From the NCBI RefSeq assembly GCF_054482595.1, contig NZ_CM137008.1: a stretch of DNA of 64,000 nt; one strand, 5' to 3'. Position 1 is the stretch's first letter. Each line of letters opens with the position of its first letter. Below, piece after piece: positions 4,405-59,544 of this stretch. The translations under genes and the position numbers were made by a program. Under the pieces are notes generated by a model. The model was not told the DNA's origin, did not search any database, and saw nothing but the letters and a program-made list of their open reading frames with translations.

Positions 4405-4474
4405 GTAGGCCGGATAAGACGCGTCAGCGTCGCATCCGGCAATCAGCATCCGGCAATCAGCATCCGGCAATCAC
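4405..4474. repeat. REP (repetitive extragenic palindrome) followed by three tandem copies of a 14-bp unit (catccggcaatcag) at 4433-4474
   Basis: gtaggccggataagacgcgtcagcgtcgcatccggc is a REP consensus; tandem units directly visible; located between convergent ypfG and tktB. Confidence 0.6.
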
Positions 4475-4476
4475 CA

Positions 4477-6480
4477 TCAGGCACCTTTCACTCCCAGCAC
4501 CTTATGCGCTTTTGCCACAATATTCTCGGCGGTAAAGCCAAAGAACGGGAACAGCTTATCCGCCGGAGCAGATTCCCCGTAACCCGTCATCCCGACAATT
4601 GCCCCTTTCAGACCAACATACTTGTACCAGTAATCGGCAATACCTGCTTCCACCGCCACGCGAGCCGCAACGTTAGAAGGCAACACCGACTCCCGATATT
4701 CCTCATCCTGGGCGTCGAAAATATCGGTCGAGGGCAGGGAAACTACGCGAACATTGCGACCTTCTCCCGCTAATTTCTCTGCCGCTTGCAGGGTGATTTC
4801 CATCTCTGAACCGGTGGCAATCAAAATAATATCTGGCTTACCGCCGCTGTCTTTCAGCACATAACCGCCACGAGCAATCTCTTTAACCTGATCCGGCGTA
4901 CGTTCCACCTGGGCCAGATTCTGCCTGGAGAGAATCAGTGCCGTCGGTCCGTTGTGGCGCTCAACCGCCAGCTTCCAGCCCACCGCCGCTTCCACCTGAT
5001 CGCACGGTCGCCAGGTGCTGAAATTTGGCGTTAAGCGCAGACTGGCCAGTTGCTCAACAGCCTGGTGCGTCGGACCATCTTCGCCCAGACCAATTGAGTC
5101 GTGGGTATAAACCATAATCTGCCGCGCTTTCATCAGTGCCGCCATCCGCGCGGCGTTACGGGCGTATTCAACAAACATCAGGAACGTTGCGGTATAAGGC
5201 ACAAAGCCGCCGTGGTGCGCGATGCCGTTGGCGATAGCGGTCATGCCAAATTCACGCACCCCGTAGTGAATGTAGTTGCCCGCCGGATCTTCCTTCAGCG
5301 AAACAGAACCTTTCCAGATGGTCAGGTTGCTGGGAGCCAGATCCGCCGAACCGCCGAGCAACTCAGGCAGCATTGGCCCGTAAGCGTTAAGCGTATTTTG
5401 CGAAGCCTTACGGGTAGCGATTTTCGCCGGATTCGCCTGCAACTCATTGATATATTTCTGAGTCGTTTTCTCCCAGTCCTTCGGTAAACCACCGCTCATC
5501 CGACGGGTAAACTCTTCTGCCAGTTGCGGATGAGCCTTTTTATAGGCGGCAAACTTCTCATTCCAGCTCTGCTGCGCTTTTTCGCCTTTTTCGCGGGCAT
5601 CCCAGGCGTGATAAATCTCTTTAGGGATTTCAAATGGCGGATGGTGCCAGCCCAGTTTTTGCCGTGCCAGCGCCACTTCTTCTTCCCCCAGTGGTGCGCC
5701 GTGCGCCTCTTCCTTACCTGCTTTATTCGGCGATCCAAAGCCAATCACCGTACGACAGATAATCAGCGACGGCTTATCTTTCACGCTTTGCGCTTCAAGG
5801 ATCGCTTCCTTCACCGCCTGCGGATCGTGACCGTCGATTTCATGGATCACATGCCAGTGATAGGCTTCAAAACGTTTTGCCGTATCGTCGGTAAACCAGC
5901 CTTCGGTTTCTCCATCAATCGAAATACCGTTGTGATCGTAAAAACCAATCAGCTTGCCCAGTCCCAGCGTGCCCGCCAGCGAACAGACTTCGTGGGAAAT
6001 ACCTTCCATCAGGCAGCCGTCGCCCATAAACACATAGGTGAAGTGATCGACAATTTCATGATCCGGCTGGTTAAACTGCGCCGCCAGTGTACGCTCTGCT
6101 ATCGCCAGTCCGACGGCGTTCGCCAAACCTTGTCCAAGTGGACCGGTGGTGGTTTCAACACCGGGCGTATAGCCGATTTCCGGGTGGCCAGGGGTTTTCG
6201 AATGCAACTGACGAAAGTTCTTCAGCTCTTCCAGCGGCAGGTCGTAACCGGTCAGATGTAGCAAACTGTAGAGCAGCATCGACGCGTGACCGTTGGAAAG
6301 AATAAAGCGGTCGCGATCATACCAGGTTGGGTCGGTAGGGTTATGTTTAAGAAAATCGTTCCACAGCACTTCGGCAATATCAGCCATGCCCATCGGCGCG
6401 CCGGGATGACCAGAATTGGCTTTTTGTACCGCATCCATACTGAGTGCGCGAATCGCATTGGCAAGGTCTTTTCGGGACAT
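4477..6480 (-). CDS. tktB: Transketolase 2
   Basis: 667 aa from ATG at 6480 ([27 protein letters not shown]...); TPP-binding motifs; the track ORF includes a 21-codon in-frame upstream extension. Confidence 0.95.
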
Positions 6481-6499: not shown

Positions 6500-7450
6500 T
6501 TATAGTTTGGCGGCAAGAAGATCTTCCAGTTTGCGTTGATCAACGGCGAACAGACGAATGCCTTCAGACAGTTTTTCTACCGCCATCGCATCCTGATTGT
6601 GCTCCCAACGGAACTCCGCTTCGCTCATGGGAGCTGGGCGTGGGAACGTCTGAGAAGGTGGGATTAATTTACGTACCACTGGCGAAACTTTTTCCTGCAG
6701 CTCCTTCAGCAAATTCGGTGCGATAGTCAGTCGATCGCAGCCGGTTAAGGCGAGGATTTGTTCGGTGCGACGGAAGCTCGCGCCCATCACAATGGTTTCA
6801 TAGTGGTGTTGCTTATAGTAGTCGTAGATATTGCGCACCGATTTAACGCCCGGATCTTCTTCCACCACATACGGGTCCATCGGCTTGCGTGCCTGATACC
6901 AGTCATAAATACGCCCGACAAACGGCGAAATCAGAAAAACGCCTGCTTCTGCACAGGCCCGTGCCTGGGCAAAAGAAAACAGCAGCGTCAGGTTGCAGTT
7001 AATACCTTCTTTTTCCAGCTCTTCTGCCGCGCGAATTCCTTCCCAGGTCGAAGCCAGCTTGATCAGAATGCGTGATTTCTCAACGCCTTGTCGCTGATAC
7101 AAGTCCACCAGATGGCGCGCCTTCTCAATACTCTTTTCTTTATCAAAAGAGAGGCGTGCATCAACTTCTGTTGACACGCGACCGGGTACGATTTTGAGGA
7201 TTTCAGCACCGAAATTGACCGCCAGTTTGTCACACGCTGCGACCACCTGTTGTTCCTGGGTCTTGCCATTTTTTTTACCCCAGGCGATAGCATCGTCTAT
7301 TAAATGCTCATATTGTGATAATCCGGCAGCCTTGAGTAACAGCGAAGGATTGGTGGTGGCATCCTGGGGATGATAATGGCGAATGGACTCAATATCGCCG
7401 CTGTCTGCCACGACAGTGGTGAACTGTTTGATGCCGTCTAACTCGTTCAT
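6500..7450 (-). CDS. talA: Transaldolase A
   Basis: 316-aa ORF, classic transaldolase sequence; immediately upstream of tktB on the same strand (talA-tktB operon). Confidence 0.95.
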
Positions 7451-19116: not shown

Positions 19117-20516
19117 ACACTCGCCAGCTATTGAGCGTCGGTATCGATATCGGCACCACCACCACCCAGGTGATTTTCTCCCACCTGGAGCTGGTTAACC
19201 GTGCGGCGGTGTCGCAGGTGCCGCGCTACGAATTCATTAAACGCGAAATTAGCTGGCAAAGTCCGGTGTTCTTTACCCCTGTCGATAAACAGGGCGGTTT
19301 AAAAGAAGCGGAACTGAAAACCTTAATACTCGAGCAATATCAGGCTGCGGGTATTGAGCCGGAAAGCGTTGATTCTGGTGCCATCATCATCACCGGTGAA
19401 AGCGCGAAAACCCGCAATGCTCGCCCGGCGGTGATGGCGCTCTCTCAGTCGCTGGGCGATTTTGTCGTTGCCAGCGCCGGGCCGCACCTCGAATCCGTGA
19501 TCGCCGGTCACGGAGCCGGGGCACAAACCCTTTCTGAACAACGGCTGTGTCGGGTACTGAATATCGACATCGGCGGTGGCACCGCGAACTACGCCCTGTT
19601 CGATGCCGGAAAAATCAGCGGCACCGCCTGCCTCAACGTCGGTGGTCGCCTGCTGGAAACCGACAGCCAGGGGCGCGTGGTTTACGCTCATAAACCGGGG
19701 CAGATGATTGTGGATGAGTGCTTCGGTGCAGGCACTGACGTCCGTTCGCTGACCGGCGCGCAGCTGGTGCAGGTTACCCGGCGGATGGCAGAACTGATTG
19801 TCGAAGTGATTGACGGAACGCTCTCACCGCTCGCGCAGGCATTGATGCAAACCGGTTTGCTGCCCGCAGGTGTTACGCCCGAAATCATTACGCTTTCTGG
19901 CGGCGTGGGCGAATGTTATCGCCACCAGCCCGCCGACCCGTTCTGTTTTGCCGATATTGGCCCGCTGCTGGCAACGGCGCTGCATGACCATCCGCGCCTG
20001 CGTGAGATGAACGTACAGTTTCCGGCGCAAACCGTGCGCGCCACGGTGATTGGCGCGGGCGCGCATACCCTTTCGCTCTCTGGCAGCACAATCTGGCTTG
20101 AGGGCGTACAACTGCCGCTGCGCAATTTGCCGGTGGCGATCCCGATTGATGAAACGGATCTGGTGGGTGCCTGGCAACAGGCGCTGATTCAGCTGGATCT
20201 TGATCCCAAAACTGACGCGTACGTGCTGGCGCTTCCCGCCTCGCTGCCTGTGCGTTACGCCGCGGTACTGACGGTCATCAACGCGTTGGTCGATTTCGTC
20301 GCGCGTTTTCCGAATCCGCATCCCCTGCTGGTGGTGGCCGGGCAGGACTTTGGTAAAGCTCTGGGCATGTTGTTGCGCCCACAGCTACAACAACTCCCGT
20401 TGGCAGTCATTGACGAAGTGATTGTCCGCGCGGGGGACTATATCGACATTGGTACGCCTCTTTTTGGCGGATCGGTTGTGCCGGTGACGGTGAAATCACT
20501 CGCATTTCCTTCCTGA
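19113..20516 (+). CDS. eutA: EutA, reactivating factor for ethanolamine ammonia-lyase
   Basis: 467 aa; GTG start overlapping the eutH stop (GTGA). Confidence 0.9.
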   Translation: MNTRQLLSVGIDIGTTTTQVIFSHLELVNRAAVSQVPRYEFIKREISWQSPVFFTPVDKQGGLKEAELKTLILEQYQAAGIEPESVDSGAIIITGESAKTRNARPAVMALSQSLGDFVVASAGPHLESVIAGHGAGAQTLSEQRLCRVLNIDIGGGTANYALFDAGKISGTACLNVGGRLLETDSQGRVVYAHKPGQMIVDECFGAGTDVRSLTGAQLVQVTRRMAELIVEVIDGTLSPLAQALMQTGLLPAGVTPEIITLSGGVGECYRHQPADPFCFADIGPLLATALHDHPRLREMNVQFPAQTVRATVIGAGAHTLSLSGSTIWLEGVQLPLRNLPVAIPIDETDLVGAWQQALIQLDLDPKTDAYVLALPASLPVRYAAVLTVINALVDFVARFPNPHPLLVVAGQDFGKALGMLLRPQLQQLPLAVIDEVIVRAGDYIDIGTPLFGGSVVPVTVKSLAFPS

Positions 20517-29581: not shown

Positions 29582-29618
29582 AAAGGCCAGGCAGTAACAT
29601 TACTGACTGGCCTTTTTA
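29582..29618. terminator. Bidirectional rho-independent terminator between convergent yfeX and yfeW
   Basis: Long hairpin aggccaggcagtaa-cat-tactgactggcct followed by TTTTT. Confidence 0.55.
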
Positions 29619-35232: not shown

Positions 35233-35348
35233 TCTTATTCCCTTTTCAACTTCCAAATCACCAAACGGTATATAAAACCGTTACTCCTTTCACGTCCGTT
35301 ATAAATATGATGGCTATTAGAAAGTCATTAAATTTATAAGGGTGCGCA

Positions 35349-40207: not shown

Positions 40208-40576
40208 TTATTGCGCAGGCACTGTTTTATCCGTCTGCGCAATTAACGCATGTAAAAAAGGCTGTGCATTCTCATCGCTCTTACCGGGCATCTTCACGAT
40301 ATACGGCTTCCCGGTAATCGATGATGACGAAGCAACCTTATCAATAAACTGCTCGGCAGTGTTAATGCGGTTACGGGTATTGCCGAGCTTCAGACGCAGA
40401 TGAGAAACCGCTTCATCGCAGGTATGTTCATCACCGTTGCGCACAAATATCAAATCCTTTTTCTGTGCTAATCCCTCCAGCATGGCGTTGATGCGGGCTT
40501 CTTCATGGGCAGTTAACTTCGCGTAAGCGGGGAGTGTCATTAGTAGTGTAATGACCAGACAAATGATTTTCTTCAT
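40208..40576 (-). CDS. yfeK: Small secreted protein YfeK (signal peptide)
   Basis: 122 aa, [19 protein letters not shown] signal sequence; divergent from pdxK; stop is 2 bp from the cysM stop. Confidence 0.75.
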
Positions 40577-52000: not shown

Positions 52001-52332
52001 ATATCGATATGAGTCGTTTTTTCAACAGGATTTAGAAGGGATACATTCAGAGACAAACGCTGCTCTTTTTCCTGCGCCTTTTCTGCCTGCTGTCTCTGCA
52101 ACTGCGCCAGTTGTGTTTCCAGTAGGGTGATTTGCTGTTGAATCAATTCGGCCTGTTTTTGTTTGTCTTCAGCACTGCCGCTAGTGTCTACAATCTCTTT
52201 AATTTGTTGAGTGAGTTTGATGATTTGCTGACTTATCCGCGCGATTTGTGAAGCAACATCGCTACCTTGTGATGCCATGTTACTACTCTGTGTTTGTATG
52301 GAAGGAATTGAAGTTGAAGAGATAGTGGCCAT
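51991..52332 (-). CDS. FlxA-like small Gln-rich coiled-coil protein (hypothetical)
   Basis: 113-aa ORF; QQ-rich heptad-like region [35 protein letters not shown] resembles the prophage-associated FlxA family (recalled, not searched); overlaps the yfeR 3' end by 10 nt; start codon uncertain (internal Met at codon 19). Confidence 0.5.
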
Positions 52333-52408
52333 TGTTCAGTCCTCGTCACTGTACGAGGTAATATCGGTAGAAGAACAAGGAACTTGAGAAGAAAAATCAA
52401 TCTTACAA

Positions 52409-56102: not shown

Positions 56103-58292
56103 ATGTTTGTGGAGCATAACCTGATAAAAAATATCAAGATATTCACACTAGCGTTTACGCTCACCGTGGTACTTATTCAGCTTTCCCGTTTTATTTCGCC
56201 ACTTGCCATTATCCATTCCAGTTATATCTTTCTGGCGTGGATGCCACTGTGCGTAATGCTGTCAATCTTGTTTATCTTTGGCTGGCGCGGTGTCGTTCCC
56301 GTTTTATGCGGGATGTTTTGCACCAATCTGTGGAACTTTCATCTCTCTTTTTTACAGACTGCGGTCATGCTCAGCAGCCAGACGTTTGTCGTGTTATGTG
56401 CCTGCGCAATATTACGCTGGCAGCTGGGGACGCGTTGGCGTTATGGATTGACCAGCCGATATGTCTGGCAACGTCTGTTCTGGCTTGGTTTGGTGACGCC
56501 GATCGGCATCAAATGCAGCATGTATCTTGTGGGGAGCTTCTTTGATTTCCCGCTAAAGATATCCACCTTTTTCGGCGATGCGGATGCCATTTTCACGGTC
56601 GTTGATTTGCTAAGCCTTTTCACCGCGGTGCTGATTTACAACATGCTTTTCTACTATCTCACTCGCATGATTGTAAGTCCCCACTTTGCGCAGATATTGT
56701 GGCGCAGGGATATCGCTCCGTCGTTGGGCAAAGAGAAACGCGCATTTACCTTAAGCTGGCTGGCAGCGTTAAGCGTGCTGCTACTTCTGTTGTGCACACC
56801 TTATGAAAACGACTTTATTGCCGGTTACCTGGTACCCGTTTTCTTCATCATCTTTACCCTCGGGGTCGGTAAGCTTCGCTATCCGTTTTTAAATCTCACC
56901 TGGGCTGTTTCAACGCTTTGCCTGCTGAATTACAACCAGAACTTTTTGCAAGGGGTGGAAACCGAATATTCGCTGGCATTTATTCTTGCGGTGCTGATTT
57001 CCTTTAGCGTTTGCCTGCTCTATATGGTGCGCATTTATCATCGCAGTGAATGGCTTAATCGCCGCTGGCATTTGCAGGCGCTGACCGATCCGTTAACGCT
57101 CCTGCCCAACTTTCGTGCGTTGGAACAAGCGCCGGAGCAAGAGGCGGGCAAGAGTTTTTGCTGCCTGCGCATTGATAATCTTGAGTTTATGAGTCGTCAT
57201 TACGGGTTAATGATGCGCGTTCACTGTATCCGATCAATTTACCGTACGCTGCTGCCGTTGATGCAGGAAAACGAAAAGTTGTATCAATTGCCGGGTAGTG
57301 AACTGCTGTTAGTGCTGAGCGGGCCGGAAACGGAAGGGCGACTCCAGCATATGGTTAACATCCTGAATAGTCGGCAAATTCACTGGAACAATACCGGGCT
57401 GGATATGGGCTATGGTGCTGCCTGGGGGCGTTTTGATGGAAATCAGGAAACCCTGCAACCCTTGTTGGGGCAGTTAAGCTGGCTGGCGGAGCAATCCTGC
57501 GCACATCATCATGTGCTGGCGCTGGATAGCCGAGAGGAGATGGTTTCCGGGCAGACCACTAAACAGGTGCTATTGCTGAATACCATTCGCACGGCGTTAG
57601 ATCAGGGTGATTTGCTGCTCTACGCCCAGCCAATTCGCAACAAAGAGGGTGAAGGTTATGATGAGATCCTCGCGCGACTGAAATATGACGGCGGCATTAT
57701 GACCCCGGATAAGTTTCTGCCCCTTATTGCTCAGTTTAATCTTAGCGCGCGTTTTGATTTGCAAGTGCTGGAATCCTTGTTGAAGTGGCTGGCAACACAC
57801 CCTTGCGACAAAAAAGGCCCGCGCTTTTCAGTTAATTTAATGCCGCTCACGCTGCTGCAAAAGAATATTGCCGGGCGGATTATTCGTCTATTTAAGCGTT
57901 ATCACATCTCCCCGCAGGCGGTCATTCTTGAGATCACCGAGGAGCAGGCGTTTTCTAACGCAGAAAGCAGCATGTACAACATCGAGCAGCTGCATAAGTT
58001 TGGTTTCCGGATTGCGATTGATGACTTTGGCACCGGCTATGCCAACTACGAACGGTTAAAGCGTTTGCAGGCTGATATCATCAAAATTGATGGCGTCTTT
58101 GTGAAAGATATTGTCACGAATACGCTGGATGCGATGATTGTGAGATCAATTACCGATCTGGCGAAAGCGAAGTCATTGAGTGTGGTCGCGGAGTTTGTCG
58201 AGACGCAACAGCAGCAGGCGTTATTGCATAAGCTCGGGGTGCAATATCTGCAGGGGTATTTGATTGGTCGCCCGCAGCCATTAGCTGATTAA
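56103..58292 (+). CDS. pdeA: c-di-GMP phosphodiesterase PdeA (YfeA): MASE-type membrane domain, degenerate GGDEF and EAL domains
   Basis: 729 aa from ATG 56103 (MFVEHNLIKN...); hydrophobic N-terminal third; EAL-domain motifs near the C-terminus (QPI...DDFGTGYA). Confidence 0.85.
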   Translation: MFVEHNLIKNIKIFTLAFTLTVVLIQLSRFISPLAIIHSSYIFLAWMPLCVMLSILFIFGWRGVVPVLCGMFCTNLWNFHLSFLQTAVMLSSQTFVVLCACAILRWQLGTRWRYGLTSRYVWQRLFWLGLVTPIGIKCSMYLVGSFFDFPLKISTFFGDADAIFTVVDLLSLFTAVLIYNMLFYYLTRMIVSPHFAQILWRRDIAPSLGKEKRAFTLSWLAALSVLLLLLCTPYENDFIAGYLVPVFFIIFTLGVGKLRYPFLNLTWAVSTLCLLNYNQNFLQGVETEYSLAFILAVLISFSVCLLYMVRIYHRSEWLNRRWHLQALTDPLTLLPNFRALEQAPEQEAGKSFCCLRIDNLEFMSRHYGLMMRVHCIRSIYRTLLPLMQENEKLYQLPGSELLLVLSGPETEGRLQHMVNILNSRQIHWNNTGLDMGYGAAWGRFDGNQETLQPLLGQLSWLAEQSCAHHHVLALDSREEMVSGQTTKQVLLLNTIRTALDQGDLLLYAQPIRNKEGEGYDEILARLKYDGGIMTPDKFLPLIAQFNLSARFDLQVLESLLKWLATHPCDKKGPRFSVNLMPLTLLQKNIAGRIIRLFKRYHISPQAVILEITEEQAFSNAESSMYNIEQLHKFGFRIAIDDFGTGYANYERLKRLQADIIKIDGVFVKDIVTNTLDAMIVRSITDLAKAKSLSVVAEFVETQQQQALLHKLGVQYLQGYLIGRPQPLAD

Positions 58293-58300
58293 CAGGCGTA

Positions 58301-58332
58301 AAAAAACCGGGGAATTATCCCCGGCTTTTTTA
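58301..58332. terminator. Bidirectional rho-independent terminator between convergent pdeA and nupC
   Basis: AAAAAAA-ccggggaat-tatccccgg-cTTTTTT. Confidence 0.6.
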
Positions 58333-58341
58333 TGTATGGTC

Positions 58342-59544
58342 TTACAGCACCAGTGCTGCGATTGACGCAGACAGCACACTCACCAGGGTAGAGCCGTAAA
58401 CCAGTTTCAGACCGAAGCGAGAAACCACATTACCTTGCTCTTCATTCAGGCCTTTAACTGCACCTGCAATAATTCCGATTGAAGAGAAGTTAGCGAAGGA
58501 AACCAGGAACACAGAGATGATGCCTTCAGCACGCGGAGAGAGCGTGGAAGCAATTTTCTGCAGATCCATCATCGCAACGAACTCGTTAGAAACCAGTTTG
58601 GTCGCCATGATACTGCCCACTTGCAGTGCTTCGCTGGACGGAACACCCATCACCCATGCAATCGGATAGAAGATGTAGCCCAGGATGCCCTGGAAGGAGA
58701 TGCTGTAGCCAAACCAGCCAGTCACGGTGGCAAACAGTGCGTTCAGCGCGGCGATCAGGGCGATGAAGCCAATCAGCATTGCGGCAACGATAATGGCAAC
58801 TTTGAAACCTGCCAGAATGTATTCACCCAGCATTTCGAAGAAGCTCTGACCTTCGTGCAGGTTGGACATCTGAATGTTTTCTTCACTGGCATCAACACGG
58901 TAAGGGTTGATCAGCGACAGCACGATAAAGGTGCTGAACATGTTCAGTACCAGCGCCGCAACGACATATTTCGGCTCCAGCATGGTCATGTATGCACCAA
59001 CGATGGACATAGATACGGTGGACATCGCCGTTGCTGCCATGGTGTACATACGATTGCGGGAGATTTTGCCGAGGATATCTTTATAGGCAATAAAGTTTTC
59101 AGACTGACCCAGAATCAGAGAGCTGACGGCGTTAAAGGATTCCAGTTTGCCCATGCCGTTGACTTTGGAGAGCAGGAAACCAATTGCGCGGATAATCACC
59201 GGCAACACGCGAATGTGCTGGAGAATACCGATCAGTGCAGAGATAAAGACGATTGGGCACAGCACTTTCAGGAAGAAGAATGCCAGGCCTTGATCATTCA
59301 TGCTACCAAAGACGAAGTTAGTCCCTTCGTTGGCAAATCCGAGCAGTTTTTCGAACATTTCGGAGAAGCCTTTCACGAAGCCTAAACCAACGTCGGAGTT
59401 CAGGAAGAACCACGCCAGTAACACTTCGATAACAAGCAGTTGAATAACATAACGGATACGAATTTTTTTGCGGTCGCTGCTTACCAGCAGTGCGAGAATC
59501 GCAACAACGGCAAGTGCCAGTACAAAATGAAGGACGCGGTCCAT
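58342..59544 (-). CDS. nupC: Nucleoside:H+ symporter NupC
   Basis: 400 aa from ATG at 59544 ([14 protein letters not shown]...); the track ORF carries a 13-codon upstream extension. Confidence 0.9.

Follow-up and report, generated by a model that had tools for sequence, protein, structure and literature searches.

The pdeA-nupC spacer of a Santai-like Escherichia coli is the unoccupied form of the K-12 IS186C site

Introduction

Work of SaiSree and colleagues from 2001 is said to describe the lon promoter as a target site, or hot spot, of IS186. A detailed account of the target comes from mutation-accumulation lines, where 68 new IS186 insertions pointed to a target of high specificity, 5'-GGGG(N6/N7)CCCC-3' (Lee et al., 2016, PMC5009759). 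The K-12 genome holds only 19 target sites of the N6 type and 35 of the N7 type, with fimA, menC and others serving as targets; some sites were hit repeatedly in these lines, and, the motif being palindromic, the inserted element could face either way (Lee et al., 2016, PMC5009759). The presence of IS186 beside nupC in K-12 goes back to Craig, Zhang and Gallagher (1994, Mol Microbiol 11:1159, pmid 8022285), as that work is cited in PMC3454398, and in a full-text literature search we found no paper mentioning IS186 together with nupC.

Here we describe the spacer between pdeA (formerly yfeA) and nupC in a 64,000-nucleotide stretch of E. coli DNA, hereafter the window, which is compared with three described systems. 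The closest is the IS186C locus of K-12 MG1655, with which the window shares the position, the convergent flanking genes and the hairpin sequence found on both sides of the element; it differs in lacking the 1339-bp element, in holding one copy of GGAATTATCC, in having its terminator intact, and by about 1-2% in the flanks. With the known IS186 hot spots the locus shares the same perfect GGGG-N6-CCCC motif, the occurrence of both orientations in natural isolates and a duplication centred on the N6 core. Those hot spots lie in promoters or coding sequence, whereas the motif described here forms the stem of a terminator between genes and is vacant in the window; moreover, the duplication has 10 bp here when 23 bp are assigned to each terminal repeat, whereas Lee et al. 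describe a duplicated core of 6-7 bp. The third system comprises the known bidirectional Rho-independent terminators of convergent genes, which show the same single G+C-rich hairpin with an A-run and a T-run just past both stop codons, and compared with these the window hairpin, as a predicted terminator, has nothing unusual.

Results and Discussion

Structure of the pdeA-nupC spacer

The coordinates of all features are collected in Table 1. XH990 and Santai are near-identical genomes, and their RefSeq annotation supplied the start of pdeA and the names of both genes; the K-12 orthologs are b2395 for pdeA and b2393 for nupC. The sequence of the spacer is CAGGCGT-AAAAAAA-CCGGGG-AATTAT-CCCCGG-C-TTTTTT-ATGTATGGTC, and its hairpin sits between the converging stop codons, that of pdeA ending at 58292 and that of nupC starting at 58342. 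The palindrome is composed of A7 (58300-58306), CCGGGG (58307-58312), the AATTAT loop (58313-58318), CCCCGG (58319-58324), a single C and T6 (58326-58331). Read on the minus strand, the same hairpin is followed by U7, derived from the A7 run, and a terminator consensus scan found a T-run after the hairpin on both strands. The stem has seven pairs, six of them G-C and the seventh a single A-U pair borrowed from the loop. Since A7 and T6 flank this G+C stem, the RNA of either strand finishes with a strong hairpin and, after it, a U-run.

Table 1. Position of the features described for the window and for the genomes compared with it
Feature	Position	Strand	Remarks and evidence
pdeA (formerly yfeA) CDS	56103..58292	+	729 codons plus TAA stop (58290-58292); ORF list
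nupC CDS	58342..59544	-	400 codons plus stop (complement 58342-58344); ORF list
pdeA-nupC spacer	58293..58341	.	49 bp from stop codon to stop codon; the terminator hairpin is its sole feature
Bidirectional intrinsic terminator	58300..58331	both	Terminator scan on both strands and RNA folds
GGGGAATTATCCCC, perfect GGGG(N6)CCCC IS186 target motif	58309..58322	.	Unoccupied; only match in the 64-kb window
GGAATTATCC, 10 bp duplicated beside IS186 in K-12, HS and WS4437A-1	58311..58320	.	Single copy in the window; junction reconstruction
Segment with the inverted IS186 copy in E. coli HS	Locus L005 3030-4454; corresponds to window 58311-58320	opposite to K-12	
CPZ-55 cryptic prophage, absent from the window	K-12 2558691-2565480; window junction eutA-eutB about 20494-20516		
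yfeS (about 960 bp in K-12), absent from the window	Window 40210-40214		Clean junction
xapR-xapB-xapA-yfeN (about 4.4 kb in K-12), absent from the window	Window 52001-52406		Replaced by about 404 bp

The predicted RNA folds are in line with this arrangement. The plus-strand RNA folds with -25.2 kcal/mol (z -4.70) and the minus-strand RNA with -24.4 kcal/mol (z -4.97), and in both cases none of 200 shuffled sequences folded as well. A stable G+C stem-loop on both strands, U-runs directly 3' of it and a position between convergent genes are the features of a bidirectional intrinsic terminator, and on the strength of this canonical structure the hairpin is predicted to end transcription in vivo in both directions. 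The earlier note on this DNA, made from its letters alone, had described the gap between the two genes as 49 bp with a bare terminator hairpin, a description upheld by the open reading frames, the terminator scan and the folds.

An Rfam search of positions 57300-59300 (E up to 1) returned no family at its gathering score. The sub-threshold matches to Leu_leader (28 bits, gathering score 50) and ar35, which overlap the hairpin, and to SNORD22, located inside nupC, were dismissed as chance.

The K-12 insertion and the matching empty site

The gene order in NC_000913.3 is nupC (b2393), IS186C at 2514273-2515617 with insL3 (b2394), and pdeA (b2395), an annotation that confirms what the earlier note had stated for MG1655, namely an IS186 copy between nupC and yfeA. 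In the orientation of the window, the left junction of the K-12 element passes from AAAAAAACCGGGGAATTATCC directly into CATAAGCGCTAACTTAAGGGTTG, and the right junction from CAACCCTTAAGTTAGCGCTTATG directly into GGAATTATCCCCGGCTTTTTT. The distance between fixed anchors on the two sides is 1425 bp in K-12 versus 76 bp in the window, and the excess is accounted for by IS186 itself, 1339 bp long and bounded by perfect terminal repeats of 23 bp, together with the 10-bp target duplication GGAATTATCC. Deleting the element together with one copy of the duplication from the K-12 sequence recreates the window hairpin exactly. When the window was compared to K-12 by blastn, the aligned pieces overlapped at window positions 58310-58321, covering the duplicated bases, and across this overlap K-12 position 2515614 is joined straight to 2514276, with IS186C skipped. 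The window is, then, the precise unoccupied form of the K-12 IS186C site.

The 23-bp terminal inverted repeat of IS186, CATAAGCGCTAACTTAAGGGTTG, had 0 matches across the 64-kb window with up to three mismatches allowed, and the 49-bp spacer contains no gene for an IS4-family transposase (insL). Together with the alignment that skips IS186C, this bears out the claim that the window carries no IS186. The K-12 alignment had been proposed as the comparison by which the claimed insertion difference could fail, and it shows the insertion present in K-12, so the claim stood. Two observations go beyond that note: the stem of the hairpin is itself the IS186 target motif, and the K-12 element splits the hairpin. 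The K-12 copy lies inside the loop; an alternative placement outside the hairpin was checked by alignment and was not borne out.

The IS186 target motif in the terminator stem

The stem-loop of the terminator spells GGGG-AATTAT-CCCC, the sole match to the N6 or N7 form of the target within the 64-kb window. By chance, 0.66 GGGG(N6)CCCC sites are expected per 64 kb, and at least one site was present in 47 of 100 shuffled sequences. A lone motif in a stretch of this length is statistically unsurprising, and its meaning lies in the exact coincidence with a real insertion point: the target has been used in K-12, HS and WS4437A-1, each of which carries here a 1339-bp IS186 flanked by GGAATTATCC.

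Taken as a whole, we hold it to be very probable that the spacer is an intact and unoccupied bidirectional terminator with an IS186 target in its stem, and that the window shows the site as it was prior to insertion. The convergent pdeA and nupC share an intact, predicted Rho-independent terminator, the stem of which happens to spell GGGG-N6-CCCC, a sequence that the IS186 transposase recognises. In K-12 and roughly a sixth of the sequenced E. coli, IS186 has entered the loop, with GGAATTATCC duplicated and the hairpin parted from both U-runs, and the window, whose source is E. coli O157:H16 Santai or a strain nearly identical to it, would show the site before any IS186 insertion. The locus offers a clean natural example of the published rule that IS186 enters GGGG-N6-CCCC in either orientation.

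States of the site across E. coli genomes

The state of the site was surveyed in 5426 complete E. coli genomes, with the uninterrupted state scored on a 1051-bp junction. The junction was uninterrupted in 4460 of these genomes, about four out of five, a count that should not be read as a natural frequency since the sample is inflated by many re-sequenced K-12 laboratory derivatives, as are the counts that follow. The K-12-type junction, from the end of pdeA to the IS186 end nearest the insL stop, occurred in 479/5426 genomes, and the junction of the opposite orientation in 467/5426, including HS, ATCC 8739, ML35 and WG5. Other states, among them IS4 in the hairpin and a deletion, were found in about 18/5426. 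IS186 was present anywhere in the genome in only 2212/5426, so that around 43% of the IS186-bearing genomes have a copy at the nupC-pdeA site and about 1270 (by subtraction, 2212 - 946) carry the element elsewhere and lack it here. Strains with the IS186C insertion of K-12 are a minority, and the empty site by itself, as the state of 4460/5426 genomes, is of little diagnostic value.

The inverted copies in HS and WS4437A-1 occupy the identical position and have the identical 10-bp duplication, with the transposase gene co-directional with pdeA. The HS copy differs from that of K-12 at 1 of 1339 positions and the WS4437A-1 copy at none. WS4437A-1 is close to K-12 around the site as a whole, with 6 substitutions across 37 kb, and has the xap block and yfeS as K-12 does. 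Using a 1-kb query that reconstructs the K-12 empty site, we found at least 40 natural isolates (including NCTC86, UMNF18, ST540 and G3/10) in which the site is empty and the 1-kb flank is 100% identical to K-12. In 23CRST047 and 23CRST049 the site holds IS4 itself, with flanks identical to K-12 over a 3-kb query; in 23CRST047 the element lies within the same hairpin and is flanked by a 13-bp duplication, GGGGATAATTCCC (locus L011 1655-3175). Hence flanks identical to K-12 at the lengths compared are found with every one of the empty, IS186-forward, IS186-reverse and IS4 states, and because the empty and both IS186-occupied states share these flanks, the empty site alone does not separate lineages.

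IS4 prefers the target AAA-N20-TTT. The A-run, hairpin and T-run of the nupC-pdeA terminator would presumably satisfy this pattern, for which our literature search found no source.

Two further genomes depart from these states. In 2020CK-00188, the flanks of which are about 95-97% identical, the pdeA-nupC spacer has 142 bp (locus L008 about 1990-2135) and contains two copies of the hairpin, the first of them degenerate (GCAGGGAATTATCCCCGGC), around a REP-like palindrome (GCCTGATGCGCTACGCTTATCAGGCC); this arrangement may have arisen by an ancient duplication there or by the insertion of a REP element. In ST2747 a deletion has removed nupC completely along with the 3' end of pdeA, leaving pdeA joined to the region upstream of mntH (locus L009 about 4420-4720).

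The biology of the site is already known, the window being the common unoccupied form of a canonical terminator, the K-12 insertion having been known since 1994 and the motif having been published. The additions made here are modest: the two orientations are split almost equally, a single haplotype is found with every state, and IS4 has entered this hairpin too. Apart from bookkeeping, the result as a whole is of little importance.

Probable loss of the terminator in K-12

Of the stem, the 3'-end RNA of both nupC and pdeA in K-12 retains no more than four pairs, and the end of IS186 stands where the U-run was. These 3' ends fold no better than shuffled sequences (z 0.06 and 0.67 for locus L001 5236-5301 on the plus strand and 6594-6659 on the minus strand). 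Judging from the folds, the IS186 insertion has probably cost both nupC and pdeA of K-12 their native intrinsic terminator. If neither gene keeps its native terminator, K-12 transcript-end maps would be unrepresentative of most E. coli at this locus, a practical point for users of K-12 as a reference, in which the nupC and pdeA 3' ends would be atypical.

History of the site

From parsimony, the empty state appears to be ancestral rather than restored by excision; parsimony is the argument used because precise excision would leave an identical sequence. The simplest reading of the several states is that an empty target was hit on separate occasions, in agreement with the experimental behaviour of IS186 (PMC5009759).

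The two orientations might instead go back to a single insertion that was later inverted where it stood, by recombination between its 23-bp terminal repeats, and WS4437A-1 speaks for this: only 6 substitutions from K-12 in 37 kb, it has the K-12-identical IS186 inverted within the same duplication. We consider this unlikely, given that the many isolates with an empty site on K-12-identical 1-kb flanks provide an empty ancestor for separate hits, and that single motif sites were entered repeatedly and in either orientation in mutation-accumulation lines (PMC5009759). The identity of the two copies is uninformative on this point, IS186 copies being at least 99% identical in nearly all records, and the related element IS4 hit the same hairpin independently.

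We give little credence to a bolder proposal, in which the terminator stem would be a place where IS4-family elements land again and again (IS4 as well as IS186 in its two orientations), with at least four allelic states on one K-12-like flanking haplotype. Because both genes are deprived of hairpin and U-run by every such insertion, the site polymorphism could affect how nupC and pdeA transcripts form their 3' ends, how far they read through, or antisense transcription of the two genes; instead of being neutral, it might be maintained or selected again and again.

It is very improbable that an ancestor of the source strain had IS186 at this position and that its precise excision restored the hairpin. 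The empty, forward and reverse states on K-12-identical flanks do show a dynamic site; however, the flanks of the window itself differ from the IS-bearing K-12 haplotype at 20/2206 and 23/1238 positions, the site shows neither a scar nor a partial duplication, and of the 5426 genomes 4460 have the uninterrupted junction and only 2212 contain any IS186. Equally hard to credit is that the hairpin is some other palindromic element (a protein-binding site, a REP-like unit or an RNA-stability element) whose intergenic place is incidental, for although the two hairpin copies around a REP-like element in the divergent 2020CK-00188 suggest a repeat-related history, a G+C stem with a 4-6 nt loop and symmetric A- and T-runs, 7 to 17 nt past two converging stops, is a textbook bidirectional terminator, Rfam gave no match above threshold and the window spacer lacks a REP consensus.

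Comparison of the wider window with K-12 and Santai

The window is colinear, in reverse orientation, with K-12 2508586-2586120, the exception being about 404 bp at 52001-52406, and segment identities to K-12 range from 96.4 to 99.1%. Positions 39001-64000 gave 100.0% identity and the top score to O157:H16 Santai (NZ_CP007592.1), AHM21C2872I and W619, and from 27001 to 64000 the window differs from Santai at 1 of 37,000 positions. These identities agree with the earlier proposal of a non-K-12 source, which can be specified as a Santai-like E. coli. Four segments are extra in K-12 with respect to the window, namely CPZ-55, yfeS, xapR-xapB-xapA-yfeN and IS186C, and the alignment thereby corroborates the reported absence of CPZ-55, yfeS and the xap block. 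The description of the region as IS-poor holds for the 64-kb window, which, being colinear with K-12 over all but those approximately 404 bp, contains no IS element.

As CPZ-55 is absent and the eutA-eutB junction is clean, the eut operon is uninterrupted in the window. The segment in place of the xap block carries a small minus-strand gene, annotated in Santai as 'FlxA-like family protein', which adjoins the lysV-valYXU tRNA cluster and the annotated RtT sRNA. K-12 also has additional intergenic DNA of about 155 bp between yfeW and yfeX (window 29587-29613) and about 140 bp between cysP and ucpA (window 35233-35236), and this extra sequence may represent REP-type repeats.
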